Source of the DNA: Candidatus Woesearchaeota archaeon
GTDB taxonomy: Archaea; Nanobdellota; Nanobdellia; Woesearchaeales; JACPIF01
DNA: 64,000 nucleotides
Assembly (NCBI GenBank): GCA_016188215.1
Contig: JACPIF010000010.1
Location: 43,174-107,173 of the forward strand
Reading direction: 5' to 3'
The position numbers and the translations under genes are program-made. Positions 9,940 through 54,383 of the stretch are shown piece by piece (the stretch's first letter is position 1; each line of letters begins with the position of its first letter). The notes beneath the pieces were generated by a model. It ran no database searches and had not been told where the DNA came from. It worked only from the letters and a program-made list of their open reading frames with translations.

Positions 9940-9942
9940 AAA

Positions 9943-12002: not shown

Positions 12003-12060
12003 AAGGCTCAAAAACAAGAAATAGTTTATAAATGTTAGTTTTAGCCCCGTGTCTAAGGAA

Positions 12061-26059: not shown

Positions 26060-26182
26060 CTTGGAACACAAAAATCCGCTGGCATTTAAAGCTTGCGGAA
26101 GCTTGTCTCCATTGACAGAATATAAGTTTTCAGACAAAGAAATGCACCAACCTTTAAAAAGACCCGTTTTATTGATGGCCAC

Positions 26183-27413: not shown

Positions 27414-30029
27414 CTATATCTTGTGAGCCCTCATCAACAACGAATTCATCACGACACTCACAGAGCTGAAAGCCATGGCAGCTGCTGCTATCATCGGATT
27501 TAATAGGAATCCAAAGTATGGGAATAGAATGCCTGCGGCAATAGGTATCCCGACTATGTTATAGATAAAAGCCCAGAACAGGTTCTGCTTGATCTTCCTT
27601 ATAGTATACCTGCTCAGCTCAATTGCTTTTGGAACATCCCGCACATCATTCCTCATTAATACTATATTCCCGGTCTCAAGCGCAACGTCAGTCCCTGAGC
27701 CTACGGCAATACCTATATCTGCCGTGGCAAGCGCAGGAGCATCATTTATACCGTCACCTATCATTGCAACAACCTTGCCCTTTGCCTGCAGCTCTTTTAC
27801 CTTCTTTTCTTTCTCCTCAGGCAATACCTGTGCAAATACTTTATCTGCAGGGATGCCAAGCTGCCCGGCAATTGCCTCAGCTGTTTCCTTGTTGTCGCCG
27901 GTTATCATGTATACATCAATCTTCTTGCGCTGCAGCTCAGCTACAGCTTCCTTTGCGCCTTCAGTGATGGTGTCTGCAACCGCTATGACCCCTTCTGCCT
28001 TTCCGTCAAGCGCAGCAACAATCGTCGTCTTCCCCTGCTTTTGGAACTCGCTGATCTTTGCCTCAAGGAATGAAACATCAATCTTCTGCTCACGCAGGAA
28101 CTCAGGGTTGCCCAATACTGCCTTCTTTTTCTGGTAACTGCCTATGAGCCCTTTTCCGGGGACAGCCTTGAAATCCTTGAATTCCTTTCCTGCTATCCCC
28201 TTCTTTTTTGCATGATTCACAATAGCCTGCCCTATGGGATGCTCGGAGCCTTTTTCTGCTGACGCAGCTACCTCAAGCAGCCTGTTTTCATCTGCCACTG
28301 CAAATACGTCAGTTACCTCAGGCTTCCCCTTTGTCAGTGTTCCTGTCTTGTCAAATATGATTGCATTTAGCTTGTATGCAGTTTCAAGCGCTTCTCCACT
28401 CTTGATCAGGACGCCCTGCTCAGCCCCCTTTCCAGTGCCTACCATGATGGCAGTCGGCGTAGCTAATCCCAAGGCGCAAGGGCATGCTATGATTAGCACT
28501 GCAATGAAGACACTTAGTGAGAATACCAGCTTTCCAAGTTTTTCATATGCACCAAGCTGGTCTCCAGACAGCCATGCCTGCCCTAAAAAATACCATGCTG
28601 CGAATGAAAGCAATGCAATGACAATAACAACAGGGACAAAATACGCACTTACCCTGTCTGCAAGCCTCTGTATAGGAGCCTTACTGCCCTGCGCCTCTTC
28701 AACCAGTCTGATGATGTGAGCAAGTGTCGTATCCTTGCCAACTTTCTCTGCCCTGAATCTCAGAAGCCCATTCCCGTTTATAGTCCCGCCAAAAAGCCTG
28801 TCACCCGGCTTCTTATCAACAGGCTTTGATTCACCTGTCAGCATTGACTCGTCTGCATATGAAGTGCCCTCTGTGATGGTGCCATCCACCGGTATCCTTT
28901 CCCCGGGCCTCACAATGACAATGTCCCCCACTCTGATGTCATCAACCTCTATTGTTATCTCTTTGCCGTTTCGCAGCACTCTGGCTGTCTTCGGCTGCAG
29001 TTGCATCAGCTTCTTTATGGCAGCAGATGTCTTGCCCTTCGCCTTTGCCTCAATATATCTCCCTAAGATGATAAGGGTGGTGATGATGGCTGCTGTATCA
29101 TAATACACCCCAATGCTCCCCCGTGCAATAAAAAATTCAGGGAATAATGTAACCAGGGCACTGTACAGGTATGCAGCAGTAGTGCCTATGGCTATCAGCG
29201 TGTTCATGTCTGCAGTCCTGTTCTTTAATGCCACCCATGTTGAGCTGTAGAACTGCCATCCCACCCAGAATTGGACAGGAGCAGTCAGTATAAGCAATAC
29301 ATAAAGATTAGTCAGGAAATCAGGAACAAACGGGAAGAATTCAGGAAAGCTGCCGAGCAGGATAACGGTGGATAGGAGCGCTCCTATAATAAATTTCTTC
29401 TTCAACTCATACATCTCTCTATCCCGCGCCTGCTGCTCAAGGTCTGCTATATTCCCTGTTTCTTCTATTGGAGTGTAACCTGAGCCCTTTATTGCATTCT
29501 TTATTGCAGTCAGGTCTATATGGCTTGGGTCAAATTTTATCTCTGCCCTCTCATTTGCGTAGTTCAGGCTTACGTTTTGGATGCCGTCAAGTTTTTTCAG
29601 GGCTTTCTCAACAATCTCTACACAATGCGGCGAATGCATGCCGAGCACTTTGAGGCGCACAAACTCCGCTCTTTCGGATGTGGCAGGTTTGGGTGCAACA
29701 AGCGCTTTGTATCCTGTGCTGTTGATAGCCTTATAGACATCAGTTTCCTGAACTTTAGTAGGATCAAATGTGACGGTGGCGCGCTCAGTTCCATAATTGA
29801 CGCTGGCTGCCATAATCCCCGAAGTCTTCTTCAGGGCTTTCTCTACAGTCACGGCGCAGGATGCGCAATGCATGCCCCTTATTGGCACAATAATTGTTTT
29901 TTCCTTGCCGCTTTGTGAGGCATGAGTTAAATGGTTGATATTCAGCTCGCGCTTGGCTGCCTTTTTAGCCCTGACAGTATGCTTGGCATTCTTACCTTTG
30001 CTTTTACTTATATGCTTCTTTCCTGCCAT
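27414..30029 (-). CDS. copA: copper-translocating P1B-type ATPase
   Basis: Two N-terminal HMA domains are present ([15 protein letters not shown] and degenerate [15 protein letters not shown]). The core motifs are TGE (TGESKPV), CPC ([12 protein letters not shown]), DKTGTLT and [10 protein letters not shown]. Confidence 0.9.
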
Positions 30030-30030
30030 A

Positions 30031-30951
30031 TTACCTTAAGTCCCAGGCAAATTCCCTCCTATTGCCATGGTCAGATATTACAAGTTTAATAGACTTTGCC
30101 TGCTGGTTTATATCAGGAAAACTTAGGATGCCTTCCCTATGGTGGCCTCCAGGCGGGCTGCCTTCCCAGGAAACAGGCTGGTAAGCATCCTCCAAATCAT
30201 CGTAAAGGAGTGCAATCTTTGTGACATCAAAATCAAGCTCAACAGAATGTGTATTAATGCTTACCTTGAATTCAGAGGAGCTTACTGGCGTCACGGTAAA
30301 ATCAACATTATTCTGGCTGCTTGTCTGAGCTGCAGGGAACTTGTATGCAGCTTGTATCGGGGATGAGCCACCATCTTCCGAAAGGAAATAAAAAGAGGCA
30401 GCTACGGTAATAATTGAAGCAACAAGAAGCGCATAAAATATACTCTTAATCTTACGGCCTTTATCAATAGACCTGCTGCCCATTATGCTTGACATATAAA
30501 CTATGCCTAAAGCATTAGACAGCAGTCCAATCAGGAGGAAGGCAGTCTGGTATTTTGTAAAGAAGATGCCAAGGGCTGCGATGCCGAGGAAGGGAGCTAT
30601 ATCTGAAACATGGTGCGCACAGCACGCCACCATGGAGGTTGCTGAAGCGCCTGTTGAAACAGCAGCAGAGGCAGTGGCAGCCTTATGCATGGCATCACGC
30701 ATGTAGAAAAACATGCCCATCTGGACGCCGAACCCCACTGATAACGGAACCATCCAGTACCAAAGCGCCACGAAATTGTCTAATGCAAATTCTGCGCCGC
30801 CAAGCAGGGAGGCGACTATGAAGTAAAACATAAGCAGGGCTGCGCTTGCAGATATACCTATTATGAAGTATTTTTCTTTTGTTTCAGAAATCGAAGGTTT
30901 CTGAGACCCAGAACTTTGTTCTTTTGTTTCCGTATAAAAGGTTTTTTTCAT
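30031..30951 (-). CDS. membrane protein with CC..HH motif and soluble C-terminal domain (copper-operon partner)
   Basis: About 5 TM helices carry [17 protein letters not shown], and the tail ends PGGHHREG. The stop is 2 nt before the copA start. Confidence 0.5.
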
Positions 30952-31571
30952 TTTATTGCCTCAATAAAATCAATATTTCTTTTTGCTCTGGAGAGCCTAA
31001 TATTCCTAAACTTTGCCTGTTTAATAAAAAGAGGAATCTTGCCTTCATAATTATCTTTTCCTTCCTCAATATATAGCGGAATCCACATTAACATCGTCAT
31101 AAGTAGACCTTTTGGCTTTCCAAAATCAGTAACTATAAGCCTTCCTCCTTTCCTTAGGATCCTATACATTTCCCTGAATGCTGCAATTTTTTGAGGTGTC
31201 TTAAGGTGGTGAATCGCCAGAGTAGTTGTAATAACATCAAAGCTTTCATTAGGGAAAGGAAGCTTCTCAGCAGACCCATGAATGTATTTTATCTTTAAAT
31301 TGTTTTGGAGTGCTTTGCTCTTTGCTATACGCAATGCCTGCATATCAGGATCAAGGCCAGTAACTTCTAGATTGTGATATTTAGTCTTGTACAGCCTCGT
31401 CATTATACCTGTGCCGCATCCAATATCCAACAGCTTCCCTTTGCTTGGCAAAGCGGCTTTGCTTAGCAAATCTTTCCTGAACTTATCTCCAAGACCGATA
31501 ATGCTGCAGAGCAAGTCATAAAATCTTGTCAAAAAATGATATCTAAGGGGAGGGATATATCCATCTGCCAT
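30948..31571 (-). CDS. class I SAM-dependent methyltransferase (UbiE/Methyltransf_11-like)
   Basis: The motif LLDIGCGTGIMTRL..FDVITTTLAIHHL is present. The gene overlaps the downstream gene by 4 nt, indicating translational coupling inside the copper operon. Confidence 0.65.
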   Translation of the reverse strand: MADGYIPPLRYHFLTRFYDLLCSIIGLGDKFRKDLLSKAALPSKGKLLDIGCGTGIMTRLYKTKYHNLEVTGLDPDMQALRIAKSKALQNNLKIKYIHGSAEKLPFPNESFDVITTTLAIHHLKTPQKIAAFREMYRILRKGGRLIVTDFGKPKGLLMTMLMWIPLYIEEGKDNYEGKIPLFIKQAKFRNIRLSRAKRNIDFIEAIK

Positions 31572-31579
31572 TATATCAC

Positions 31580-31813
31580 CTAATGCCTATGCCCAGCTCC
31601 CTTACCATGGCGCATGCCGTACATCATCACCACATGCACCAGGATCATTGCACCAATTGCGATAAGCGTAAGCAGCGCATTATTCTTCCACCCAAAGTAC
31701 GGAGCTATTGCAAAAATAGCTATTGGAACTAGGCAGGCAAGCATCATAAGCCACATAGAATGGCCATGACCATCTGCAATGCCATATGTCTTCTTGGCAC
31801 TACCGGTTCCCAT
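31580..31813 (-). CDS. small His-rich membrane protein (DUF2933-like)
   Basis: GHGHSMWLMMLACLVPIAIF plus a His-rich tail (HGKGAGHRH) resembles the small proteins often found beside metal ATPases. Confidence 0.45.
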   Translation of the reverse strand: MGTGSAKKTYGIADGHGHSMWLMMLACLVPIAIFAIAPYFGWKNNALLTLIAIGAMILVHVVMMYGMRHGKGAGHRH

Positions 31814-32081
31814 AAGATCCCAGCCAGTTATAGATAAATGCAAATAAATATCCAGTGATTGCGGCCACTATAAACCATACGATCATGCCTGCAGCAATCC
31901 CTATAACGCTAAGGTTCTTTACTGCAATGCTGCCGATATCCACACTGTGGAACAGCATATTCGCTACACGTACAGTTGCCCCCAGCGGGAACACTGCAAC
32001 GAGCACCGCGCAGAGCAATGATATGCCTGCTGCCGTCGTGCCCAATGCAACCGCAGCAACATTCGGATTAAGTCGTTCCAT
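31800..32081 (-). CDS. small membrane protein (3 TM)
   Basis: This is the first gene of the copA-containing minus-strand operon. It is hydrophobic with no family recognised. Confidence 0.4.
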   Translation of the reverse strand: MERLNPNVAAVALGTTAAGISLLCAVLVAVFPLGATVRVANMLFHSVDIGSIAVKNLSVIGIAAGMIVWFIVAAITGYLFAFIYNWLGSYGNR

Positions 32082-32099
32082 TTTTATCTTCCTCCTTGC

Positions 32100-32240
32100 A
32101 TCTTAAAGATATATCTTATTTTGACATATAGTGAAACTAACAAATATTTAAATCTTTGCATTATATCCTATTTTGATATATGAGATTGCTTGGCAATCTC
32201 GGATACTCAAAAATAGGTCTATTTTTGATATATCAAGAAA
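32100..32240. promoter_or_regulatory. divergent promoter region with three ~52-bp-spaced ATTTTGAYATAT motifs and a perfect 8-3-8 palindrome
   Basis: The motif occurs at about 32114-32130, 32167-32182 and 32218-32234. The palindrome gagattgc-ttg-gcaatctc is at 32182-32200. The outer motifs sit about 25-30 nt from the two divergent start codons, which is a TATA-like position. Confidence 0.4.
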
Positions 32241-32260
32241 TACAAAGTTATTTATAATTC

Positions 32261-32698
32261 ATGCCATCCCCAATTGATATGGCAGACATCAAAGTGACCA
32301 ACATGGTGAAGTTCTACACGCTGAGCCTCCTGGCAGCGGGCCCTAAACACGGCTATGAGCTCCTCAAGGAACTGGAAGGCAGGCTGGGCAGGAAGATGAG
32401 CGCCTCCCATGTGTACCCTTTCCTAAACAGCCTGAAGCAGAAGCGGCTGGTTACCATCAACCGGAGGGGCGGCCGCGAAAAAAAGGTATACCAATTGACC
32501 CCGAATGGCAAGGCTTTCACCAGGCGGATGTTCGTAAAGTTTGGGGACCTCATCTCGCTTGCCATTGAGCCGAAGCTTACAATCTGCATGCAATGCGGCT
32601 GCAAAGTATATGAAGGCGGGCATGAGGAAAGCGTAGGTGGCAAAGCCATGAAGTTCTGCTGCCAATATTGCGCCAGGTCATACCGCTCCCGGCACTAG
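32261..32698 (+). CDS. PadR-family winged-helix regulator fused to C-terminal Cys-rich (zinc-ribbon/metal-binding-like) tail
   Basis: The PadR core is LAAGPKHGYELLKELE..HVYPFLNSLKQKRLV. The tail is CMQCGCKVYEGGHEE..KFCCQYCARSY. Confidence 0.55.
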   Translation: MPSPIDMADIKVTNMVKFYTLSLLAAGPKHGYELLKELEGRLGRKMSASHVYPFLNSLKQKRLVTINRRGGREKKVYQLTPNGKAFTRRMFVKFGDLISLAIEPKLTICMQCGCKVYEGGHEESVGGKAMKFCCQYCARSYRSRH

Positions 32699-32707
32699 CT
32701 ACTCCTG

Positions 32708-33229
32708 TTATTCCTTGCAGCAGTCCACCAGCTTCTTGACCATAAGCGAAAAGCGGCGCATCATCCCTTTCTCTGCATCCTCCTTCTGTAGGGCATCAGG
32801 TTTCCTGGCAGACTGACTGAATTCCTCAACTGCAACAAGCTTCAGATTTATAGCAAAGAATAATGAGTACATGTTGAAGGCAGCAGTGAAGAATTCCTCT
32901 GCCTCCTCAATATTTTTCCTTGAAAGCTCTTTTGTGCCGACTTCCATGAGGCGCATGCTGGCAGCCAGCAGATGCTTGCTGATGCACCATTCCTCCCCTT
33001 TAGGGCTCTTCACTATCTTGGCAAGCATCTTTTTCCGTAATTCGCGGACACTGTCCAGCATCTCAAGATACTTGCGGTTTCCGGTCTTCATGGCAGTAAA
33101 ATAAAGATGCTCTTCCAGGCTGAGCAGGTTCATTATGCCTATGCTAAGATCCTCGTCCCTTGAAAGATCAGCGCTCCCTTTCTTCTGCTCTTCCAGTTTC
33201 CTGAGCCAAACCTGTATCTCTTCTTCCAT
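32708..33229 (-). CDS. hypothetical cytoplasmic protein
   Basis: The ORF is 173 aa and helical, with a C-terminal CC. Confidence 0.35.
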   Translation of the reverse strand: MEEEIQVWLRKLEEQKKGSADLSRDEDLSIGIMNLLSLEEHLYFTAMKTGNRKYLEMLDSVRELRKKMLAKIVKSPKGEEWCISKHLLAASMRLMEVGTKELSRKNIEEAEEFFTAAFNMYSLFFAINLKLVAVEEFSQSARKPDALQKEDAEKGMMRRFSLMVKKLVDCCKE

Positions 33230-33239
33230 GCAGACCTCC

Positions 33240-33782
33240 TCATACGATAAAGTACAATCCCAGCCAGCCTAAGCCTAAGGCCATTACAGTCAACGCAACC
33301 CCCTGGTAGGGGAACAGGACCTTGCCCCGCACAGCCTTAATCCTCACATGAGTCCAGTAAGCAATAATGGTGAGCAATGCGCCAAAGGCGCTGCCAAACA
33401 GCATCTTTGGAATCCAGTACACCTTGTTCAGCAATGTTCCGGGCTCTCCGCCAAGCAGGATTGGCAAATATAGCATATCATTATTGATGTACAGCAGTGG
33501 CATTACTGTCAGCAATAAGGAACTGACCGTAAGCACTGATTTTTGGAATGGAACCTTGGCTCCGTATCTTCTTTCTATAACCAGTGCAAACCATAATCCT
33601 GTGGATATCCCGAAAGCGCCCAGCATCAATCCTATGAGGCTTGGGTCAAAGCCATAATAGCTTGCAGAGGCAGCAGCGCTACCCACAGCTATGGTACATA
33701 GAGGGCAATGCGCCCATGCCTGCGGCATCCTTAACAGCAGAAGTGCCGGGAGTGCAAAAAGCCAAAAAATTACCTTTTTCAT
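33240..33782 (-). CDS. membrane protein with N-terminal HCPLC motif
   Basis: Start is placed at ATG 33780-33782 (MKKVIF). The signal-like N-terminus is followed by AHCPLCT and about 5 TM helices. Confidence 0.45.
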   Translation of the reverse strand: MKKVIFWLFALPALLLLRMPQAWAHCPLCTIAVGSAAASASYYGFDPSLIGLMLGAFGISTGLWFALVIERRYGAKVPFQKSVLTVSSLLLTVMPLLYINNDMLYLPILLGGEPGTLLNKVYWIPKMLFGSAFGALLTIIAYWTHVRIKAVRGKVLFPYQGVALTVMALGLGWLGLYFIV

Positions 33783-33784
33783 GG

Positions 33785-33943
33785 TTAATGACAGCACCCG
33801 CCCTTCTTTGAATTTTTAGCATTTTTCTCGTATTGCTGAACACATGCACTTGAGCAAAACCACTCATCATGCTTCCGTATCCCCTTGCCTTTTTCTTCTT
33901 TCATTCCACAAATTGGATCTTTTTTCCTTAGGAAGCCAAACAT
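33785..33943 (-). CDS. YHS/TRASH-domain metal-binding protein
   Basis: DPICGMKEEKGKGIRKHDEWFCSSACVQQYE matches the YHS pattern (DPVCGM.V....YYFCS..C...F). The C-terminus ends GGCCH. Confidence 0.6.
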   Translation of the reverse strand: MFGFLRKKDPICGMKEEKGKGIRKHDEWFCSSACVQQYEKNAKNSKKGGCCH

Positions 33944-33944
33944 T

Positions 33945-34283
33945 TTAACAACCCCCAACCATGCCGGATGATGAAGGTGTTGCTCCTTGCTGCACTCCCG
34001 CAGGAAGCACGCCATGGTGCTCATACATCATCTTATCGTTCTCTGACCATGAGGATATGTCAAGCGATTGCTGCCCTGCCACTGATGCTCCAGACGCAAT
34101 CTCTCCCCTTAGTGTATTTATCTGGAATGCCTGCACTACTACAAACAGCAGCACAAGGCTGACCATGCCGAGGATTATGTAGCTCCTTAGCTTGCCCTGG
34201 CCTGATTCATGGCTCTCTCCAGCTTTTTCCTTGCTGTGTGAGCCACAGCAATCCTCTACTCCTTTTTCGTCTCTATGTCTCAT
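33945..34283 (-). CDS. single-TM protein ending in C-terminal MVGGC
   Basis: The N-terminus has DCCGSH, one TM follows, and the protein ends ..SSSGMVGGC. The SD GGAGGT lies 8 nt upstream. Confidence 0.5.
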   Translation of the reverse strand: MRHRDEKGVEDCCGSHSKEKAGESHESGQGKLRSYIILGMVSLVLLFVVVQAFQINTLRGEIASGASVAGQQSLDISSWSENDKMMYEHHGVLPAGVQQGATPSSSGMVGGC

Positions 34284-34392
34284 TTTTGATACCTCCGAAT
34301 TTATGAGGAGGTTCCAAATTCCTGTTTGATACCTCCGAATTTATGAGGAGGTTCCAAATTCCTGTTTGATACCTCCGAATTTATGAGGGGGT
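34284..34392. repeat. 40-bp direct repeat x2.7 in 5' region of 33945-34283
   Basis: The unit tttgatacctccgaatttatgaggaggttccaaattcctg repeats with period 40. Each unit has the inverted repeat cctcc-N10-ggagg. Confidence 0.85.
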
Positions 34393-34453
34393 CAGAAACC
34401 GAGAAAAGCTATGCTTTTCTGGTCCCGAAAATCTATGGATTTTCGTGGAATTA

Positions 34454-35107
34454 TTAATTTTCTATACCCCTGTACTTGTTTGATGCTATATTTATGTAAT
34501 TCAGTTCAATCCCTTTCTTCTGCATGACTGCAGCTTTCTCAGCCATTATATCCGGGAAAAACAATGTTTTCCACTTGCCAAGCTCTTCAAGAATCTCATC
34601 ATCAGTGAATTCTGAGCCGTGGTTCCTGATGAGATATTTTGCAACGCCGCGCATCGCGAAGCTGTGCTGGCATCCGCATGCAGCTTCCCCATTCTGGAAT
34701 ATTATTGAATCTGTGCCGCAGCAATATTCGCAGCTTATCTGGCTGGCAATGCTGATGTACCTTTCCTTTTCCTCGCCTGAAAGCCTGATACCAGTATCAA
34801 GCCTTCCGAGCTTAGCTATAGTACCGTCAGCCTTCTTCTGGTCCTGCAGCGAGATGTCGTCATAGCTGACACTGAGCTCGGCGCCGTATATCCTTGGCAT
34901 TCCTTTTGGGAATATGTCAGGCAGGTTCTCCTTGGCCGGCTGTGCCTGCACACCTTGCTGCATGATGGCCTGCCCTTGTATAGTATTGGAGGGAGCATTC
35001 ATGCTTCCCATACCCATCAGCTGGAATTCGTTGAATCCAGCTATGAACATGCCTGCAACCAATAATCCTAATACCAAGCGATCTATATTATCAATCTGCA
35101 TTTGCAA
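34454..35107 (-). CDS. membrane-anchored Cys-rich protein, CxxCC..CGC family (paralog of 43851-44579)
   Basis: ISCEYCCGTDSIIFQNGEAACGCQHSFAMRGVAKYLI.NH..TDDEILEELGKWK is collinear with ISCEFCCGAPSVVDNNGRDLCGCSHAQSFMGLSKYLIKTH..TNDEILLELTKWK. Confidence 0.5.
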   Translation of the reverse strand: MQMQIDNIDRLVLGLLVAGMFIAGFNEFQLMGMGSMNAPSNTIQGQAIMQQGVQAQPAKENLPDIFPKGMPRIYGAELSVSYDDISLQDQKKADGTIAKLGRLDTGIRLSGEEKERYISIASQISCEYCCGTDSIIFQNGEAACGCQHSFAMRGVAKYLIRNHGSEFTDDEILEELGKWKTLFFPDIMAEKAAVMQKKGIELNYINIASNKYRGIEN

Positions 35108-35197: not shown

Positions 35198-35674
35198 CTA
35201 TTTAAGAACAACTATATTAGTCATGCCCCTTCTCTTCTTCTCAAGGATGCCCTTGCTCTCCATCTTGTCCAGGATACGTGTCATGCGCACCTTGCTCAGG
35301 CCCATCTCCTTGATAATGTCTGACTGGTATGCAGAGCCTTCCCTGGCCTTGACGAATTCATACACCTGTTTCTCATTAGCGTCAAGCCTGCTTAGGTCAA
35401 CTGGTTTGATGAGAGCTTTTTCGCCTGCCTTATAAAAAAACATAAGGTAGATCCCTACGCCCAGCATGATAAAGGTTATGCCAAACGCTATAGTGAGCAG
35501 CCAGGAGAGGTTGCTTTTATGGGCAGGATTATCCTGGATCTTTATTCCTTGCTCATGGGCGCTTTCGCACAGTAGCCTGGCCTGCTCATCTGTGGTTACC
35601 TTTACGAAGGCAAGGATAAACAACAGGATGATTGATACTGTAAGGAGCCCTGCTCCAATTGTCTTTGTCTGCAT
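35198..35674 (-). CDS. membrane-anchored winged-HTH (MarR/TrmB-like) protein
   Basis: Two TM segments are followed by a C-terminal wHTH (EKQVYEFVKAREGSAYQSDIIKEMGLSKVRMTRILDKMESKGIL). Confidence 0.45.
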   Translation of the reverse strand: MQTKTIGAGLLTVSIILLFILAFVKVTTDEQARLLCESAHEQGIKIQDNPAHKSNLSWLLTIAFGITFIMLGVGIYLMFFYKAGEKALIKPVDLSRLDANEKQVYEFVKAREGSAYQSDIIKEMGLSKVRMTRILDKMESKGILEKKRRGMTNIVVLK

Positions 35675-40075: not shown

Positions 40076-41074
40076 CTATTTGAGCTTGAGCTTTAAATTC
40101 TTATCTTTTTGCTTGCTGGACTGCCTGGCCTTGCCACTTCTTCTCCAAAAGTAGACCATCAATATAATAAATGCTGCCAACAGCAGCCCGCCAAGGATAT
40201 TGCCGAGAGCAGAGCCGAACAGTTTGCGCTGCCAGTCATAGAAGAGCAATTTGCCGCCGAACATGCTGAAGGCATTGAACTTCCAGGTTCCTCTGTAAAC
40301 GTAGATGATAACTCCCATTGCGATTAAAAGCAAGCCTCCGAGCATGTTGCTTGAATTAAATGCAAACCTGCCAAGATAGATTGTCTTGCCGCGCATCCAG
40401 GGCTTGCTTCCAAGATCATAGCGGTCATATAATCCTGCTATGATGAACAATGGGACAAGAATACCTATCCCGTAAAAGAAGAATAGCAATGTTGCATAGA
40501 AGAAATTGTGCAAATAAGTTGCCATGACAAGAATTCCTACTAAGATAGGCCCTAAACAGGCGCTCCACCCAACAACAAAGAACATACCTAGAAGGTACAT
40601 GCCAAGGTAATCATGCCTGAACCTTCCGGGCTTGATGAACGAGGAAAATCCTTTGCCAAAGAACAGCATTATGCCTAAAGCAATAAGAAGCAGCCCGGAC
40701 ACCTGGGGCAATATGGATGACTCTTCCTGTAAAAAGAGAAATGATTTTCCTATATAGGCTGCAATTAAGCCGAGAGCTATAAACACTGTCATAAACCCGG
40801 CAGAAAATGCAAGCATTACCCTAAAGATATCCTTCTTTTCCTTAAAGGTAAATGCGAAGAAAGCAGGAAGTGTAGTTGCAGTGCATGGGCTCAGCAAGCT
40901 GATGAATCCTGCAAGGAAAGCTATGAGGAATGATATGTTCCTCACATTAGCTTCAGCATCCTGCTGGTTTGATGCCATGGCATTCAGCAGGCTCTGCGGC
41001 AGCTGCTGGGGATATGCAATCGGTATAAATAATAAGACAAGAAATAAAAAAATAACTATATTTTTGGTTTTCAT
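40076..41074 (-). CDS. DsbD/CcdA-family transmembrane disulfide electron transporter (extended)
   Basis: A signal peptide is followed by LSPCTATTLPAFFAF and a second conserved Cys (WSACLGPILVG). Confidence 0.7.
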   Translation of the reverse strand: MKTKNIVIFLFLVLLFIPIAYPQQLPQSLLNAMASNQQDAEANVRNISFLIAFLAGFISLLSPCTATTLPAFFAFTFKEKKDIFRVMLAFSAGFMTVFIALGLIAAYIGKSFLFLQEESSILPQVSGLLLIALGIMLFFGKGFSSFIKPGRFRHDYLGMYLLGMFFVVGWSACLGPILVGILVMATYLHNFFYATLLFFFYGIGILVPLFIIAGLYDRYDLGSKPWMRGKTIYLGRFAFNSSNMLGGLLLIAMGVIIYVYRGTWKFNAFSMFGGKLLFYDWQRKLFGSALGNILGGLLLAAFIILMVYFWRRSGKARQSSKQKDKNLKLKLK

Positions 41075-41075
41075 A

Positions 41076-41498
41076 CTACCTGACGATAATGCTGCCTTTC
41101 ATGTCACTATGGCCTGAGCCGCAGAAAACAGTGCATATCATGCCTGGATTGAATGTTCCTGTCTTGTCTGCAACAAATTCAATAGTCTGGGTCTCGTTAG
41201 GCGGCAGCCTGACGCTCTCCACGCCGAAATCAGGCAGTGCCATGCCGTGGGTTACATCAATGCTTGTCACTTTCAGCCTTACCCTGTCCCCTTTATTGAC
41301 TTCAATAGTACTGGGAATAAATTCCCATCTCTTTGCAGTAATCTCAAATTCCTTGACGGGAATTGTCACGCTATTTCCAGTATTATCTCCGGTATTATCT
41401 CCAGTATCCTCTTCAGTATCAGTTCCCTGAACTATTGGCTGAGTCTGCGTGCAGCCTGCTAAAAGCAGGAGAGCGATCAATATAAGATATTTTTTCAT
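41076..41498 (-). CDS. cupredoxin-domain lipoprotein with CuA-like C-x3-C-x3-H-x2-M motif
   Basis: The lipobox is LAGCTQT. The motif EFITAKRWEFIPSTIEVNKGDRV..THGMALPDFG..GMICTVFCGSGHSDMKG has COX2/NosZ-like CuA ligand spacing. Confidence 0.6.
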   Translation of the reverse strand: MKKYLILIALLLLAGCTQTQPIVQGTDTEEDTGDNTGDNTGNSVTIPVKEFEITAKRWEFIPSTIEVNKGDRVRLKVTSIDVTHGMALPDFGVESVRLPPNETQTIEFVADKTGTFNPGMICTVFCGSGHSDMKGSIIVR

Positions 41499-41528: not shown

Positions 41529-42767
41529 CTATTGAGCCTGCGGCTGCGGCTCAACAACCTTATTGCTCTTTAGATCCTTATAAGTGCCCAGCGCTTCAGT
41601 AAACCTGAACACATAAACAGCCTCACCAGTGGCTGTATCGTTAGTTGCGGTGCCGACCTCTTTCCATAGTTCCACCACCTGCGGATAGGCTTCCAAATCA
41701 TTGGAAAGGAAAATTGTAGGAACCTTTGTTATATTATAATTCTGCAGGAATCTTTTGCCTTCATTTGATGAGATATCATATGTGTGCTCATCCCCTGTTG
41801 TGACCCCTAAGCTAGCCAATATCTGCTTGTGAAGGGCAGCATCATAGCATGCAGTGCAGCTTTTGTCAGTGATATAGGTTATATCAACCAACCCCACAAT
41901 ATCTTTTTTCTGCAGGTCATAGTAAGGCATGGCGACTTCCCGTAATATATATGAGCCGTCTGCTTCATGCGTTCCTACTGCAGCCCAGTTCTGCTGTACA
42001 GCCTCATAATCGCCAATGCTGTCGCTGAACACCAATGCAGGCAATTTCTTTATGCTATACTTGCTGAGCAGCTGCTGCCCTTCCTTTGAAGAGGCTTCAT
42101 ATTTTTTTTCATCATTGATATAAACGCCGGCTGCCTTAGCCTGCACCAGGAATTCATTCAGGTCAGTGCAGTTTCTGCAACCATCCTTAAATATAAGGAC
42201 AGCACTTACCACACCTTTCAGGCTGCCTGTCTTCAAGTCAATGTACGGCGCAGGGGTTGCAAGGACATAAGCATCATCCCTTTTCTCAAGCTGCTGTGCC
42301 AGGCCGCTCTTTTCAACCTCGCCGGTTACTATCAACGCAGGGATACGCTCAATGCTATATTGTGCTATAAGCTCCCGGGCCTGCGCATCGTTTCTCTCAT
42401 AAACTGTTTCTTTTGTTACAGTAACCTTGCCTTCCTTGAGCAATTCTACAAGCCTTTCAAGCGCAACGCAGTTTGTGCAGCTGCTGTCTTTAATAGTGAC
42501 AAACTGGAGCTGCGCCGGCTTTGACTGCTCCTCAGCCTGTGCAACTGTATTTTTTATCTGGCCCTGCAATATAAACAGGATTATCACATTGACAATCAAT
42601 ATGGCTGCAAGCCCTATAAGAAGGACGTTTCTCCAGTTTTCCCAGTCAAACTGCTTATCCCTAGCCATTGGCTCCAGGCGCTTTTCGTGTTTCAAACCTC
42701 CTGGTTTGAGACTAGGAACAAAGTTCCTATGCTTCATTTTATGCCCTTTCTGCTTTCCAGTATCCAT
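41529..42767 (-). CDS. membrane-anchored protein with three tandem thioredoxin-fold CxxC modules
   Basis: A TM anchor is followed by three repeats: SCTNC..RIPALIVTGE, GCRNC..KLPALVFSD and SCTACYDA..KVPTIFLSN. Confidence 0.55.
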   Translation of the reverse strand: MDTGKQKGHKMKHRNFVPSLKPGGLKHEKRLEPMARDKQFDWENWRNVLLIGLAAILIVNVIILFILQGQIKNTVAQAEEQSKPAQLQFVTIKDSSCTNCVALERLVELLKEGKVTVTKETVYERNDAQARELIAQYSIERIPALIVTGEVEKSGLAQQLEKRDDAYVLATPAPYIDLKTGSLKGVVSAVLIFKDGCRNCTDLNEFLVQAKAAGVYINDEKKYEASSKEGQQLLSKYSIKKLPALVFSDSIGDYEAVQQNWAAVGTHEADGSYILREVAMPYYDLQKKDIVGLVDITYITDKSCTACYDAALHKQILASLGVTTGDEHTYDISSNEGKRFLQNYNITKVPTIFLSNDLEAYPQVVELWKEVGTATNDTATGEAVYVFRFTEALGTYKDLKSNKVVEPQPQAQ

Positions 42768-42780: not shown

Positions 42781-43281
42781 TTACACTACTTGGCTGCCTT
42801 GCCCGGCTTCTGTATCTTGATTTGCTGCCATTCCCGAGAGCGGGCATCCTGTTAGCTGTGACAGCCTATCAAAGCTTTGTACACCCTCATACCGCTCGCC
42901 ATTGATTTCCCATGTAGGGGTTTTCCTGATGCCTTGAGTTTCCTTGTAGTCCTTATAATTGACATACTTGAATGAATTGCCAAACCAGGCTGCCTGCTGT
43001 TTCGTATACTGGCACCAGCCAATTGCACCGTACATGACTGCGCCTTTATCCGTAAGGCATTTTGCAAATGCGTCATACTGCCCTGGCTTGAATTTAGCTG
43101 AGTATATTGAATATGAAAGCCCGCCGAAGATCAATACAATGATGACAGCAGCACTAATGAAATAAAGCCTTGTTTTCCGGCTTTTTTCACCCTGAAATCT
43201 TGCCAGGTCAGCCTCATGCTGCTTTCTGAGCGCTTCTGCCTGCTCCCTGTGCCTTTGCTGCGCTAGCTTAGAACTATCCAT
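42781..43281 (-). CDS. membrane-anchored VKOR-associated-type thioredoxin-like domain with CxxT in place of CxxC
   Basis: VMYGAIGWCQYTKQQAAWFGNSFKYVNY..TPTWEINGERYEGVQSFDRL resembles the Trx domain fused to bacterial VKORs. The second Cys is Thr. Confidence 0.5.
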   Translation of the reverse strand: MDSSKLAQQRHREQAEALRKQHEADLARFQGEKSRKTRLYFISAAVIIVLIFGGLSYSIYSAKFKPGQYDAFAKCLTDKGAVMYGAIGWCQYTKQQAAWFGNSFKYVNYKDYKETQGIRKTPTWEINGERYEGVQSFDRLSQLTGCPLSGMAANQDTEAGQGSQVV

Positions 43282-43308: not shown

Positions 43309-43533
43309 TTATGCAGATGGCGCTCCTGCACTGGCTGCATCAGCTGCCGCGCCTGTGTCTGCTGCAGGCGCTGCGACTCCGCATCCGCCGCCTACGGCAG
43401 CCTGCTGCCCCTGAGGCTGGCCCTGATATGCCGCATATCCTGATGGCGTCTGGTTTTTAGTGCATCCTGCCAAAAGCAGAAGAGAGATGCTTATAACCAA
43501 TGCCACAACTAAAATTCCTTTTCTCATTAGCAT
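43309..43533 (-). CDS. small Gly/Ala-rich lipoprotein
   Basis: The lipobox is LAGCTKN, with a GGGCGV motif. Confidence 0.4.
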   Translation of the reverse strand: MLMRKGILVVALVISISLLLLAGCTKNQTPSGYAAYQGQPQGQQAAVGGGCGVAAPAADTGAAADAASAGAPSA

Positions 43534-43620
43534 TACCCCCGTATTTTATTATTTCAAAATAAAATAATAAGCAAGCAAAAATAGCCTGCTATTTAAAGCT
43601 TGTTGCCCGCGTACAGTCCG

Positions 43621-43857
43621 CTAACAGCCGCCTACCATTGTCGGCAGGTTCTGGATGCTTGACGGCACATTCGGGCTGCCCTGCTGTCCGGACTGGCTTA
43701 CTGTGTTTTGGGCAGTTCCGCCTACTTTCAACTGGCCGCTTGCCAGCTTGCTTTTCAGGCCTACTAACTGAACTGCCTGCACCAAGGTTACTAATACCAG
43801 CACTACCAGCACAATCACGATTACTGTATTCTTGTTCATTTCTAAACCTCCTAACAA
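43621..43857 (-). CDS. single-TM protein ending in C-terminal MVGGC
   Basis: The protein has a TM and a Gln/Ser-rich tail, and ends ..IQNLPTMVGGC. Confidence 0.5.
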   Translation of the reverse strand: MLGGLEMNKNTVIVIVLVVLVLVTLVQAVQLVGLKSKLASGQLKVGGTAQNTVSQSGQQGSPNVPSSIQNLPTMVGGC

Positions 43858-44579
43858 CCTCCTACCATTGCCGGCAGCGCGCCTATGCTTGAGGTATCGC
43901 CTGTGCTTAGCTTGCTCAAGAGCTGCGCATCGTTTAGGCTGGATGCAGTGAGCTCCATGTCATTGCTCAGCAAGGCTGCTGCCTTTTCTACCATATTCCT
44001 GGGGTAGTATAAAGATTTCCATTTTGTCAATTCAAGCAGGATCTCATCATTTGTATATTCAGGATGCGTCTTGATGAGATATTTTGACAGGCCCATGAAT
44101 GATTGCGCATGGGAGCATCCGCACAGGTCCCTTCCATTGTTGTCAACTACTGAAGGTGCCCCGCAGCAGAACTCACAGCTGATCCTTGTGCCAATGTCAA
44201 TATACCTCTGCTTTTCATCACCAGTCAGGCTGCCTGTTGGCACTTGGCCATGGAGGCTCGCCAGCCTGTTAAGGCTATTTACTGGATCGTCATATGAGAC
44301 TCCAAGCTCAGGCCCCCACTCGGGAGTTCCAGTAGGTATCAACGCGTTGATTGCATCCTGGACATTATCGCCTGTGCGCTTCACTTCAAGGGCAAGCTCG
44401 CCGCTCGTTCCTTTAGTCATCTTGCTGCCTGAAGGGGTAAACGTCTTAGATATAGTATTTGTGCTCAAAGGGCCAGGGCTTGCAATGGTTGCAATCTGGA
44501 ACCAATTGAATAGAATCAGGAGTGCGACCGCACCAATCACGTATAAGCTGTATCTTTCAACAAATTCGTTGCTTTTCAT
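43851..44579 (-). CDS. membrane-anchored Cys-rich protein, CxxCC..CGC family, with C-terminal MVGGC
   Basis: It is a paralog of 34454-35107 and ends ..IGALPAMVGGC. Confidence 0.55.
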   Translation of the reverse strand: MKSNEFVERYSLYVIGAVALLILFNWFQIATIASPGPLSTNTISKTFTPSGSKMTKGTSGELALEVKRTGDNVQDAINALIPTGTPEWGPELGVSYDDPVNSLNRLASLHGQVPTGSLTGDEKQRYIDIGTRISCEFCCGAPSVVDNNGRDLCGCSHAQSFMGLSKYLIKTHPEYTNDEILLELTKWKSLYYPRNMVEKAAALLSNDMELTASSLNDAQLLSKLSTGDTSSIGALPAMVGGC

Positions 44580-44685
44580 GCGCCCTCAAAAATAAGATCT
44601 GAATCCCCGACGAAAGACATACTGTTACAACCTTTGTAAAACTTAAAGTATATAAAGTTTTCGCTTGATTTTTATGATTTGGCAT

Positions 44686-44733
44686 TATTCTCGTATTCTC
44701 GTATTCTCCTATTCTCCTATTCTCCTATTCTCC
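44686..44733. repeat. 8-bp microsatellite (TATTCTCS)x6 in divergent promoter
   Basis: The repeat reads tattctcg tattctcg tattctcc tattctcc tattctcc tattctcc and is followed by tatataatc. Confidence 0.8.
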
Positions 44734-44808
44734 TATATAATCATTAAAGCATATAAGGGCAATTGTTATAAATAGTATTCTTTCAATAAGAGGAAAGCGG
44801 GTGGTAGA

Positions 44809-45303
44809 ATGACCCTTATGACAGCTGAAATTGGCGAAAGAAGAGATGAAAGGCTCCTTGAAGACAGTGTAGATGCATTAATAGGACAGACAACAGGCGC
44901 CTCCTCAGATGAAAAGTTTGTAACCAGGATAATGTATGAGAATCAGCCATTTATTGATATCTTTGGAGACTCTGCTCAAGTATACATTCGCGGAACTTCA
45001 CCAAAAATGCCTGATAGGCTCAGAAGGATAGTTCAAGACAAAGAGAAAATTGAGGGTGGATCTGATGCTAATTCTGTGGTAGCCGATATTGAAAATGAGC
45101 CAGGGATAACTAAATCTATAGAGATGGTGAGGCGAATTGGGTTGCTTGGAAAAAACATAATAGATGTGTATAGGGCTTCAAGGCAAGTCCATGTCCGTGT
45201 TCCCTCCTCGCGATTGCCTGATATATTGCAGGAAGTCTTACGGTTGTACCAGCATGAGGGTTATGGCATCTCTGGTGGCGCACCATCTGCAGGGTTCTTT
45301 TAG
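44809..45303 (+). CDS. hypothetical cytoplasmic protein
   Basis: The ORF is 164 aa with no family recognised. Confidence 0.4.
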   Translation: MTLMTAEIGERRDERLLEDSVDALIGQTTGASSDEKFVTRIMYENQPFIDIFGDSAQVYIRGTSPKMPDRLRRIVQDKEKIEGGSDANSVVADIENEPGITKSIEMVRRIGLLGKNIIDVYRASRQVHVRVPSSRLPDILQEVLRLYQHEGYGISGGAPSAGFF

Positions 45304-45418: not shown

Positions 45419-45778
45419 ATGAGACGACTCAGGTTTGCCGGGACTAATGATTCTGTGCTGAGCCCGCTTGAAAATGATGTTCTAAAGATTCTGTGGCCTG
45501 ACAAGAGGATGAAGGTGCGCGCAATCTACGACAGGCTGAAAGGGAAGCGAAAGGTTGCCTTGTCAAGCATTGCGGTGATCCTGGACAGGCTGCATGAGCG
45601 CTCTATTGTTGAGCGGCAGATTGAGACAGGCAGAGGAGGGGTGCGCTATATATACTTCCCTAAGAAAAACAAGCAGGAATTTGAGACCGAGATCGTCGAA
45701 TCCACTGTCAATTCACTCATAAACAAGTTCGGGCAGACTGCAATCAGTTATTTCAATGAGCGGTTTTCAAAACGGTAG
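45419..45778 (+). CDS. BlaI/MecI/CopY-family winged-helix repressor
   Basis: LSPLENDVLKILWPDKRMKVRAIYDRL...ALSSIAVILDRLHERSIVERQ fits the family. Confidence 0.6.
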   Translation: MRRLRFAGTNDSVLSPLENDVLKILWPDKRMKVRAIYDRLKGKRKVALSSIAVILDRLHERSIVERQIETGRGGVRYIYFPKKNKQEFETEIVESTVNSLINKFGQTAISYFNERFSKR

Positions 45779-45817: not shown

Positions 45818-46564
45818 ATGGATCTAACGTGCTCAAGCTGCGCATATGCGTTTTTTACTGATCCCTTAAAGATGGGATTGGTACTTGTATCTTTTACCCT
45901 AGCCATAGCTTTTTTCCTGTATCTAAGATATGCAAGGGGCATAAGCAACGGAAGGAAACTCGGCCTGATATATGCCCACATATTCTTCCTGGTCTTCCCG
46001 GTTGTGTTTTATATGCTCTTTAGGGGATGTACTACATACTTCTCAAATTGTGACCAGCTCAAACCTGTCATAGCGCTGCTGTTCCTGACCGGCCTTACAG
46101 CAGGATTGCTGGGGGCAGTAATAGCTCCATTCCTCTTTATCAGGAAGCATGCCAGGATATCAATCCCATTAAGGGAAGGGCATCTTGCTGATGTTGTCAG
46201 GAAGCACGGCGGCAGGAAAAAGGCACAGCTGTACATGCTTGATACTGCCAAGCCGCTGGCATTTTCCACGTCTCACTTCAGCCATAAGATATTTGTCTCA
46301 ATCGGGCTGGCAGACCTGCTTACAAAGAAAGAAAAGGAAGCTGTCGTGCTGCACGAGCTCGCGCATCTTCATAATAAATCCTCGCTGCTGAAAAGCTCAA
46401 CCTTCCTGCTTGGCCTGGTGTCGCCGCTTTCAAACTTCTCAAGCATACATAGTGTAACGCAGGAGGAAGAGAAGGCAGACAGGTTTGCCGCGGCGAGGCA
46501 AGGCACCTGGCGCTATGTGCGGTCTGCAAAACAGAAGATTAACGAATTCTATAGAGAATCCTGA
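45818..46564 (+). CDS. BlaR1-like M56-family membrane metalloprotease
   Basis: About 4 TM helices carry HExxH (VVLHELAHLHNK). The gene is adjacent to the BlaI-like repressor. Confidence 0.6.
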   Translation: MDLTCSSCAYAFFTDPLKMGLVLVSFTLAIAFFLYLRYARGISNGRKLGLIYAHIFFLVFPVVFYMLFRGCTTYFSNCDQLKPVIALLFLTGLTAGLLGAVIAPFLFIRKHARISIPLREGHLADVVRKHGGRKKAQLYMLDTAKPLAFSTSHFSHKIFVSIGLADLLTKKEKEAVVLHELAHLHNKSSLLKSSTFLLGLVSPLSNFSSIHSVTQEEEKADRFAAARQGTWRYVRSAKQKINEFYRES

Positions 46565-53755: not shown

Positions 53756-54383
53756 AACAGGCGCATCACTGTTGTCAGGCATTGAGCGGAAATTAGTCCA
53801 AAAGTATGTTTCGTATATACCACCATGGCTTGAGACTTATCATCTTACCCTGCTCACTATCCTCTGGAGCCTGCTTATCATTGCGTTCAGCTACCTTGCC
53901 AGGTCTGACATTAAATGGCTGTGGCTTGTCTCACTATGTATAATACTGCAATACATCAGCGATTTGTTTGACGGTGCAGTAGGCAGATACAGGGATACAG
54001 GGCTTGTAAAGTGGGGCTATTACATGGACCACTTTCTGGATTATGTCTTTCTCTGCTCTGTCCTTATTGGCTATTCGCTGATCCTGCCAGGCAACTTCTA
54101 TCTTCTGTTTTTCATCCTCGCTATTTTCGGCGCATTCATGGTGAATTCCTACCTCTCTTTTGCCGCTACCAACGAATTCAAGATAGCATACCTAAAGATA
54201 GGCCCGACTGAAGTCAGAATCATCTTTATCATCATCAATACTTCACTGATAATGTTTGGAAGAATCTATATGGCGAAGGCTTTGCCCTACATTCTCATAC
54301 TCTCACTTCTCGGGCTCTGCGTTGTGGTGTACAGAACCCAGAGCTATATATGGGGCATTGACATGGCGAATAAGAAGAAATAA
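53718..54383 (+). CDS. CDP-alcohol phosphatidyltransferase family protein
   Basis: The motif D-G-x2-A-R (SDLFDGAVGRYRD) is followed by G..D...D spacing, with multiple TM helices. Confidence 0.65.
   Translation: MMAKKETFGGSAKTGASLLSGIERKLVQKYVSYIPPWLETYHLTLLTILWSLLIIAFSYLARSDIKWLWLVSLCIILQYISDLFDGAVGRYRDTGLVKWGYYMDHFLDYVFLCSVLIGYSLILPGNFYLLFFILAIFGAFMVNSYLSFAATNEFKIAYLKIGPTEVRIIFIIINTSLIMFGRIYMAKALPYILILSLLGLCVVVYRTQSYIWGIDMANKKK

Follow-up and report, generated by a model that had tools for sequence, protein, structure and literature searches.

Reactive cysteines on C-terminal arms are known from several carrier proteins and enzymes. In the extracytoplasmic SoxYZ complex, the substrate cysteine of SoxY lies in a Gly-flanked GGCGG motif at the very C-terminus, on a flexible arm that enters the active sites of partner proteins. 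In DsrC/TusE, MerA (with its C-terminal Cys pair) and mammalian thioredoxin reductase (TrxR, with its GCUG end), all of them cytoplasmic and of known fold, a mobile C-terminal Cys arm shuttles sulfur, Hg(II) or electrons into and out of a buried centre. A second group of systems, i.e., the copper relay from CcdA/DsbD through TlpA to Sco1 and PCuAC, and ScsABCD, combines an electron conduit and a transmembrane (TM)-anchored thioredoxin (Trx) with Cys/His/Met copper handlers. Here we analyze a two-gene module from a 64,000-nucleotide (nt) stretch of DNA of a Candidatus Woesearchaeota archaeon (assembly GCA_016188215.1, contig JACPIF010000010.1, positions 43,174 to 107,173), referred to below as the window, whose own numbering is used throughout. 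The module consists of a gene for a membrane-anchored, Cys-rich protein, which we term BIG, followed by a gene for a mini-protein, which we term small, and both products end in Met-Val-Gly-Gly-Cys (MVGGC).

A large share of microbial diversity belongs to DPANN archaea and bacteria of the candidate phyla radiation (CPR), in which the majority of conserved surface proteins lack a known function. The module is abundant, carries an invariant terminal Cys on a Gly-Gly arm, has its own regulator and presumed sensor, and lies beside the few thiol-redox and copper genes of small genomes. Solving it would provide a function for a "dark" family of large size, whose fold is probably new, and would reveal how periplasm-less cells handle thiol or copper chemistry outside the membrane; it would also give a clean case of a mini-protein duplicating an enzyme's own C-terminal arm.

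A two-gene module sharing a C-terminal arm

The window contains two copies of the module, of which locus 2 is a two-gene operon, BIG-small, on the reverse strand. BIG (43851-44579, (-)) encodes a bitopic protein of 242 residues with a single TM helix. Its layout comprises one N-terminal hydrophobic helix with a conserved FNQxQ-type motif, a linker of ~25 residues, a Cys-rich domain containing the motifs CEFCCG (residues 135-140) and CGCSH (residues 153-157), and a C-terminal arm ending in ...SSIGALPAMVGGC (...GALPAMVGGC), with the stop codon directly after. The product of small (43621-43839, (-)), of 72 residues, is "arm-only", i.e., a TM helix, a tether and an arm: it starts with MNKNTVIVIVLVVLVLVTLVQAVQL..., continues with a Ser/Gly/Gln-rich stretch and finishes with ...SSIQNLPTMVGGC (...IQNLPTMVGGC) before the stop. 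Its TM helix has an invariant VQ within a conserved VQAxQL motif, and the tether is a low-complexity segment of ~35 residues.

The initial annotation, made from the DNA alone, had described both open reading frames (ORFs), their Cys motifs and their MVGGC tails, and all of these were confirmed by ORF calling and translation. It had also reported a 7-nt overlap between the two genes, which depends on a TTG start codon for small (43621-43857(-), 78 residues). This start is improbable because all homologues of small (28/28) begin at MNKNT. The corresponding ATG at 43839 is 8 nt after a GGAGG site and 11 nt past the BIG stop, so that small probably starts there and yields a 72-residue product, with an 11-nt gap rather than an overlap. 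A hairpin with a T-rich run (43560-43590, (-)) immediately 3' of small is the likely end of the BIG-small transcript. MVGGC followed by a stop codon occurred exactly three times in a six-frame scan of the 64-kb window, compared with a chance expectation that we estimate, assuming uniform codon frequencies, at ~0.0007; the third occurrence is at the end of the small gene of locus 1 (33945-34283).

A protein search returned 203 relatives of BIG, all annotated as "hypothetical" and none with a Pfam domain. The named ones were from Woesearchaeota, Aenigmarchaeota and Nanoarchaeota, with the nearest homologues of the module labelled Woesearchaeota, and 118 of the 120 best BIG homologues ended in MVGGC. 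An exhaustive BIG profile search gave 338 clusters at 50% identity. When a BIG homologue from Buchananbacteria (CPR) was used as the query, 1,974 proteins were found at E <= 1e-20 (~2,000 clusters at 90% identity), with named matches in Buchananbacteria, Parcubacteria and Patescibacteria; among the 120 best matches, 118 were newly returned and 113 of these had the MVGGC end. On the basis of these sequence searches, the hosts of the module appear to be almost exclusively DPANN archaea and CPR bacteria. One CPR locus (L049) also has bacterial-type genes, e.g., GAF-ANTAR and Lgt. Some metagenome-assembled genomes with the module (L001, L002, L015, L027, L030, L060) are titled "uncultured Methanosarcinales", "Binatia" or "Gammaproteobacteria"; their loci resemble those of DPANN archaea, and the records are probably mislabelled or mis-binned.

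Neither protein could be placed in a described family. BIG gave no match whatever to Pfam or NCBIfam at E <= 0.1, and small gave weak sub-threshold matches, none of which reached a curated cut-off. When 31 BIG members were compared with Pfam at a permissive E <= 10, the result was noise without a credible family, and a profile search of PDB sequences returned no match at E <= 10. Literature searches on MVGGC/VGGC tails and on thioredoxin, disulfide and copper systems of DPANN archaea and Patescibacteria yielded nothing relevant. Judged by these comparisons, BIG and small appear to be new families.

The association between the two genes was assessed in a scan of species-representative genomes, which gave 260 loci, of which 80, holding 81 BIG genes, were retrieved. 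Seventy-seven of the 81 BIG genes encoded a G-x-C end. Of the 79 with enough flanking sequence, 77 were directly followed, on the same strand, by a small TM-plus-tail gene, with a median distance of 256 nt between the two stop codons; at one locus (L057), the small partner lies just upstream of BIG rather than downstream. The two tails also change together, in that the BIG proteins of five loci (several labelled Micrarchaeota) end in QVGGC, as do their small partners. The suggestion in the initial annotation that the Cys-rich protein and the MVGGC mini-protein form a real, novel and functionally linked module was thus borne out, both by the 77/79 pairing across genomes and by the lack of a known family for either protein. 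That the small ORFs are unexpressed chance ORFs, a reading for which their short length is the sole argument, can practically be dismissed. They have 28 database homologues, are conserved beside BIG at the frequency just given (the initial annotation had named a lack of such conservation as grounds for giving up the module), maintain their reading frame, and have their own ribosome binding site and a fixed place after BIG, in addition to the invariant VQ in the TM motif and the invariant tail.

In a profile-profile comparison, the BIG and small families aligned over their last 13 residues only (SSI[Q/G]xLPxMVGGC; probability 94.7%). An unbiased scan of metagenome DNA for the pattern P-x-M-V-G-G-C-stop found 174 ORFs on 120 contigs, comprising 82 small, 67 BIG and 25 unclassified ORFs. 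On our inspection, ~17 of the unclassified ORFs could be traced to one or other family as variants or fragments, and 8 were short chance ORFs, so that by our reading ~166 of the 174 (~95%) belong to BIG or small. This argues that the MVGGC tail is not a general tag on diverse cargo, and we rejected a general sorting tag for the same reason. A precursor of a ribosomally synthesized and post-translationally modified peptide was rejected because the "core" is invariant and is also borne by the putative enzyme. Prenylation-type lipidation was judged unlikely, given the probable extracytoplasmic location of the tail, and supporting genes were not noticed.

The confinement of the tail also bears on another reading, in which it would be a processing or ligation signal and BIG a Cys-His peptidase or transpeptidase that recognizes ...LPxMVGG|C at its own end and that of small, by analogy with sortase acting on LPXTG, or Atg4 and deubiquitinases acting on -GG-X. 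In its favour, LPx and Gly-Gly precede the final residue invariably, BIG has invariant Cys, His and Glu residues, and the structural model described below shows an ordered arm on the domain. However, the stop codon comes right after the motif, where a sortase, exosortase or archaeosortase signal, found on diverse cargo proteins, would have a TM helix and a basic tail, and the motif occurs in two families only, one of them being the putative enzyme itself. Moreover, a mere leaving group need not be an invariant Cys, the conserved neighbour families (many of which are unannotated) included no evident gene for a sortase, archaeosortase or other conjugation system, and the sole protease nearby is of BlaR1 type and partners BlaI. 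We regard this reading as improbable.

The large paralog of locus 1 (34454-35107, (-)) keeps all of the Cys/His motifs but has lost the arm, ending in ...NKYRGIEN, while the small protein (33945-34283, (-)), of a form that we term type B, has a CC/His-rich cytoplasmic N-terminus, a TM helix, the motif W.E.DKMMYEHHG and the tail SSSGMVGGC. The two large paralogs are 38% identical over 213 residues (E = 6e-42). Because this alignment spans every Cys and His motif, their paralogy extends beyond low-complexity regions, disposing of the concern that their similarity might be restricted to these.

The initial annotation had explained the difference between the two loci by gene fission or fusion, i.e., by movement of the MVGGC segment between the large and the small protein. 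The absence of a tail from the locus-1 large protein, next to a neighbour that has one, is what such an event would produce, and small does resemble BIG minus its globular domain, with a TM helix containing a polar Gln and the shared 13-residue arm. However, a tailed BIG and a separate small are present together in the 77/79 cases above, in both of the synteny types described below, and orthologues of locus-1 BIG (P0119, P0120, L042, L043, L065, L072) retain a tail of the form ...RGIE-x(5-12)-MVGGC. Locus 1 is therefore a case of tail loss rather than fission, and we consider a fusion or fission event very improbable. By sequence comparison, a tailed BIG with a separate tailed mini-protein is the near-universal, and probably the ancestral, arrangement in both synteny types.

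Similar losses have occurred elsewhere: the BIG genes of L059 and L076 are shortened like the locus-1 copy in the window and, together with these, the tail-less BIG of L053 keeps every invariant Cys and His and has a tailed small gene just downstream. The retention of small by an arm-less BIG with all of its invariant residues is what would be expected if the arm can work in trans. The segment between the locus-1 BIG and small genes (34285-34453, (-)) contains two perfect hairpins, CGAAAATC-CATA-GATTTTCG and GAAAAGC-ATA-GCTTTTC, followed by a 40-bp unit present as 2.7 tandem copies, of which the final one provides the GGAGG ribosome binding site of the locus-1 small gene. The window has just three tandem repeats, and this one lies exactly where the locus-1 paralog lost its tail.

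Invariant residues and predicted fold of BIG

The invariant columns of the BIG family are G84, R125, C135, E136, C138, C139, G149, C153, G154, C155, H157, W187, K188 and P193, and the tail residues P236, M238, V239, G240, G241 and C242 are near-invariant. Among 249 family members, the last residue is Cys except in ~14, which are fragments or tail-less forms, and five residues from the end, 192 members have Met, 21 have Gln and a few have Trp, Phe or Ile. A covariation search for the docking site of the tail found no BIG column that specifically co-varies with the Met-to-Gln switch, only differences at the level of clades.

AlphaFold2 modelled full-length BIG with a pLDDT of 89.1, and residues 60-242 with a pLDDT of 95.8 and a pTM of 0.92. 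In the latter model, the predicted fold is all-alpha and the arm residues are ordered, with a pLDDT of ~92. A Foldseek search of the PDB found no fold relative of the model (best E 1.6, TM-scores ~0.2 or less), and the domain is probably a new fold. The predicted secondary structure has beta-bridges at residues 135, 141, 145 and 151 and a helix from residue 156. Together with the spacing C135-x2-C138-C139 ... C153-G-C155-x-H157, this fits a treble-clef/zinc-ribbon pattern, and the segment from C135 to H157 may be a knuckle of treble-clef or zinc-ribbon type with a spare Cys and His.

The topology that we infer for both proteins is N-in, C-out. Long, charged, His-rich N-terminal extensions without signal peptides in BIG homologues suggest, together with the nature of the partner proteins, that the N-terminus is cytoplasmic. 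Such extensions were present in 48 of 211 BIG sequences; their His content is 7.8% (compared with 1.3% overall) and CC is frequent in them. In this orientation, the arms and the Cys-rich domain would lie outside the cell, where CcdA-dependent thioredoxin-like proteins work. When 10 long fusion members were searched against Pfam, the sole domain found was FKBP, in P0270. BLAST matched the N-terminal multi-TM CPxC domains of two others (P0286, P0287) to unannotated membrane proteins that adjoin BIG in CPR loci.

Gene neighbourhood and promoter

Neighbours were counted by clustering all ORFs of the 80 loci and the window, with Pfam identities checked in the window. Downstream of locus 2, on the same strand, lies a gene for a lipoprotein of 74 residues (43309-43533, (-)) with a lipobox LLAGC, a Gln-rich linker and an invariant GGGCGV. 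This family directly follows small in 11 loci, and its motif may represent a third tethered, Gly-flanked Cys. It is succeeded by genes for two TM-anchored proteins, one with a single thioredoxin-like domain (42781-43281, (-); WCQYT plus conserved Cys residues) and one with three (41529-42767, (-); CTNC, CRNC and CTAC, all conserved). The single-Trx protein was found in 23 loci, in 20 of them within 3 kb of BIG, and the triple-Trx protein at <=3 kb from BIG in 44. Next come a CuA-type cupredoxin lipoprotein (41076-41498, (-); H...CTVFCGSGHSDM), which scored above the cut-offs for Pfam Cupredoxin_1 and COX2 and whose CuA motif (CxxxCxxxHxxM) occurs in 13 loci, and a CcdA/DsbD-type electron transporter (40076-41074, (-)). 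The latter belongs to the CcdA/DsbD class by its scores for DsbD_2 (34.9 vs cut-off 24.9) and DsbD_TM (31.3 vs 27.1), and a CcdA gene accompanies BIG, at <=3 kb, in 45 loci. Inside the cupredoxin gene, a 12-bp unit repeated four times (41372-41419) encodes a repeated DTGDNTGDNTGN linker.

In the opposite direction from BIG lie genes for a BlaI/MecI/CopY-family repressor (45419-45778, (+); Penicillinase_R, 50.2 bits vs cut-off 22.6) and an M48/BlaR1-like membrane metalloprotease with the motif HELAH (45818-46564, (+); Peptidase_M48, 27.3 bits vs 20.3), whose M56 score of 22.3 was below the cut-off of 31. They are within 3 kb of BIG in 34 and 35 loci, respectively, and are adjacent in ~35; the protease is presumed to be the sensor partner of the repressor. 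In the window, a 164-residue ORF without a family match (44809-45303, (+)) lies between BIG and the BlaI-like gene. An ORF is present there in L001 also, while in most relatives the BIG and BlaI-like genes are directly divergent.

Locus 2 is an example of type A synteny, in which the M48/BlaR1-like and BlaI-like genes are divergent from BIG, small and sometimes the GGGCGV lipoprotein gene, followed sometimes by the single-Trx gene, then by triple-Trx, sometimes cupredoxin, and CcdA. Locus 1 is an example of type B, which runs through a membrane-bound winged helix-turn-helix (wHTH) regulator, BIG, small, a membrane protein that begins with AHCPLC and a cytoplasmic protein that ends in ...CC-x-E. 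The wHTH regulator (35198-35674, (-)), with two TM helices and a MarR/DUF7343 domain, heads the type B loci and is within 3 kb of BIG in 20 loci. In small proteins of type B, CC/His motifs are found on the cytoplasmic side and a W.E.[DE]KM[MQ]YEHHG motif on the outside. The AHCPLC membrane protein and the helical cytoplasmic CC-x-E protein are an unannotated conserved pair (32708-33797, (-), and L042, L050, L056, L059, L076), and may take the place of CcdA and Trx as a transmembrane conduit for thiol or metal.

Other neighbours recur less often. A DsbA-like protein was found in 12 loci, in 7 of them within 3 kb of BIG, and CopA within 10 kb in 16 of 81 loci, ~10 times a rough chance estimate for genomes of ~1 Mb; HMA, other cupredoxin-like and TRASH-motif proteins were also present. 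The window is largely an island of thiol-redox and metal genes. A copper cluster at 27414-34024 contains CopA with a CPC motif and two HMA domains, a translationally coupled membrane protein (30031-30951) with the motif VACCAHH, a regulator of the PadR family that has a TRASH domain at its C-terminus (32261-32698), and a YHS/TRASH-like mini-protein of 52 residues (33785-33943), which ends in GGCCH and whose start directly follows the small gene of locus 1. A second redox cluster (9232-12077) comprises CcdA (9232-9939), a Thioredoxin_10 redoxin (9943-11052) and thioredoxin reductase (11049-12077).

At 25268-26347 (-) there is a bacterial-type Lgt (Pfam LGT E = 8e-74; TIGR00544 above cut-off), in a genome whose nearest relatives are labelled DPANN archaea; the Lgt family occurs in 12 related loci together with several lipobox lipoproteins. 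As to the domain of life of the window, SRP54 scored ambiguously between bacterial and eukaryote-type models. Some islands (L009:7885-8613, L026:12928-13617, L105, L197) encode proteins of an unusual build, with a cytoplasmic C2H2-type zinc finger, one TM helix and an external domain, e.g., a DsbA-like protein, one with a His-rich domain of unknown type, and some variants of the small protein.

The region upstream of BIG contains a TATA-like element, TTTATATA (44649-44656), and, 10 nt downstream of it, a TACA-N5-TGTA dyad, TACAAAGGTTGTA (44626-44638), which begins 59 nt upstream of the BIG ATG and is a putative operator of BlaI/CopY type. Of 78 BIG genes, 28 have a TACA-N(1-9)-TGTA dyad in the 250 nt upstream, compared with 2.75% of random 250-bp segments, and the spacer is exactly 5 in 30 of 32 occurrences. 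With its Penicillinase_R score, the adjacent M48 protease and this enrichment of a predicted operator, the 45419-45778 protein can be assigned to the BlaI/MecI/CopY class. The window contains four TACA-N5-TGTA dyads vs 0.7 expected, the other three being at 3616-3628, 4508-4520 and 53996-54008. Of these three, one is found 6 nt upstream of a lipoprotein gene without annotation (3900-4502), which adjoins the gene for a TlpA/AhpC-like redoxin (4554-5129), and another is upstream of a gene for glutaredoxin (3227-3475). These sites suggest a broader thiol-redox regulon of BlaI type.

The initial annotation had drawn attention to an 8-bp microsatellite in the divergent promoter region. The repeat is real (TATTCTCC, period 8, 6.4 copies, 44686-44736, upstream of the TATA box), but it is absent from the closest relative, L001, and the conserved feature of the promoter is the dyad. 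The microsatellite could alter promoter spacing or be incidental.

Possible functions and relation to known systems

We tentatively favour, at slightly less than an even chance, a model in which the module is an extracytoplasmic thiol relay. BIG would be held by its single N-terminal TM anchor, with a compact helical domain outside the cell built around an invariant Cys/His centre, in which a CxxC-C knuckle is followed by a short hairpin and by CGC-x-H where a helix starts. BIG would end in the invariant 13-residue arm with Cys as its last residue, and small would present the same arm on a membrane anchor through its flexible tether. The Gly-Gly-Cys ends would act as "swinging arms" that thread into the Cys/His centre, the arm of BIG in cis and that of small in trans, and would hand a thiophilic cargo by thiol/thiolate exchange between this centre and clients at the cell surface. 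On the basis of the metal motifs and metal-related neighbours, Cu(I) would be the most likely cargo, with reducing equivalents, i.e., electrons, nearly as likely. CcdA and the thioredoxin-like neighbours would carry electrons across the membrane and keep the thiols reduced, while the BlaI-like repressor and the M48/BlaR1-like protease would turn the operon on via the TACA-N5-TGTA operator over the promoter.

Different parts of the evidence speak to different parts of this model. The arm mechanism is consistent with the ordered arm in a confident structural model, and with the retention of tailed partners by tail-less BIG proteins. A role in copper handling is suggested by the CopA, CuA cupredoxin, HMA and TRASH neighbours, by the His/CC N-terminal extensions, and by the CC/His and KMMYEHHG motifs of type B small proteins. 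Thiol redox chemistry is suggested by the frequency of CcdA, triple-Trx and DsbA-like proteins, and the proposed regulation by the BlaI and M48 neighbours and the excess of dyads upstream of BIG. The comparisons establish the two genes with their conservation and pairing, the invariant residues, the synteny and the operator-motif enrichment, from which topology, arm docking, cargo and the direction in which it flows are inferred.

Several points weigh against the relay as formulated. The case for the arm docking at the Cys/His centre comes from pLDDT and conservation rather than from a measured contact, and that for copper from neighbours and motifs rather than from direct metal evidence. The occurrence of Met, Gln, Trp, Phe or Ile five residues from the end is difficult to reconcile with an obligatory soft-metal ligand, and instead argues for a bulky docking anchor. 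CopA and cupredoxin occur in a minority of loci only, and their association with the module may reflect a general redox/metal island. A metal cargo and an electron cargo fit these data alike, and neither BIG nor small has homology to a known copper chaperone or oxidoreductase in Pfam, NCBIfam or PDB sequences.

Much of the same evidence could be accommodated by a metal-free thiol-disulfide enzyme, with BIG as an extracytoplasmic reductase, peroxidase or isomerase. A reactive Cys (e.g., C139, activated by H157 and R125) and the terminal "resolving" Cys of the BIG or small arm would form a disulfide that is reduced by the pathway from CcdA to Trx, analogous to 2-Cys peroxiredoxins and the C-terminal redox tails of TrxR. 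The commonest neighbours, CcdA and the multi-Trx proteins, would suit this reading, as would the DsbA-like protein, TlpA-like redoxin, glutaredoxin and thioredoxin reductase in the same islands, two of which share the candidate operator. So would the invariance of R125, the fusion of one family member to the folding catalyst FKBP, and the Met-to-Gln variation of the tail, which is appropriate to a docking residue and not to a ligand. However, it does not account for the motifs rich in His, CC and Met that occur on either side of the membrane, or for the excess of CopA, cupredoxin, HMA and TRASH proteins; moreover, five invariant Cys and a His arranged as knuckles resemble a metal site more than a simple redox pair. 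We consider such an enzyme unlikely, although a serious candidate.

A broader and more speculative proposal, which we think is rather unlikely to hold, is that the module represents a hitherto unrecognised type of surface chemistry in cells that lack a closed periplasm, with membrane-tethered peptide arms ending in a free Cys as non-diffusible substitutes for soluble low-molecular-weight thiols or periplasmic metallochaperones. They would be serviced by BIG, with its new fold, would have been transferred between DPANN archaea and CPR bacteria across the domain boundary, and would be important for a surface-attached lifestyle.

None of the described systems matches the module in full. BIG has no homology to the copper handlers of the CuA-assembly and copper-tolerance relays, since Sco, PCuAC and ScsA share no Pfam or NCBIfam match with BIG or small. 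In addition, the predicted all-alpha fold of BIG differs from the thioredoxin fold with CxxxC and His of Sco1/SenC, and BIG does not belong with the PCuAC proteins and their DUF461 motif H(M)X10MX21HXM; any likeness to these chaperones would be one of function. A C-G-C motif in a small Cys-rich protein, as in BIG, is also found in Pfam PF13798 (PCYCGC-motif proteins, of unknown function), but hmmscan found no match to this family in any of 31 BIG members, even at E <= 10.

The regulatory genes resemble BlaI/BlaR1 (MecI/MecR1) and CopY systems in having a Penicillinase_R regulator, an M48/M56-like protease and a TACA...TGTA dyad at the promoter. Unlike BlaR1, the window protease has no penicillin-binding sensor domain, and unlike CopY, the window repressor has no C-terminal CxC metal site; the 2-nt spacer of the cop box also differs from the 5 nt in TACA-N5-TGTA.

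With regard to the arm, BIG resembles DsrC/TusE, MerA and TrxR in having its reactive Cys within the last residues, with a Gly-Gly-Cys end that is sterically minimal. However, these proteins have no homology to BIG, and none has a separate, membrane-tethered copy of its arm. BIG had no SoxY Pfam match either, and no sox genes were noticed among the annotatable neighbours. It differs from SoxY in that its Cys is the last residue (VGGC-stop, without the trailing GG), and in that a membrane-anchored, Cys-rich domain carries its arm, of which an arm-only mini-protein has a second copy. The likeness to SoxY is that both would place an extracytoplasmic, Gly-flanked Cys on a C-terminal arm, and the set of neighbours in the BIG islands (CcdA, Trx, CuA cupredoxin and CopA) follows the same logic as the CuA-assembly and copper-tolerance relays. 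By analogy, the general logic proposed for the module thus has precedents both in Cys-arm carriers and in extracytoplasmic relays fed by CcdA and Trx.

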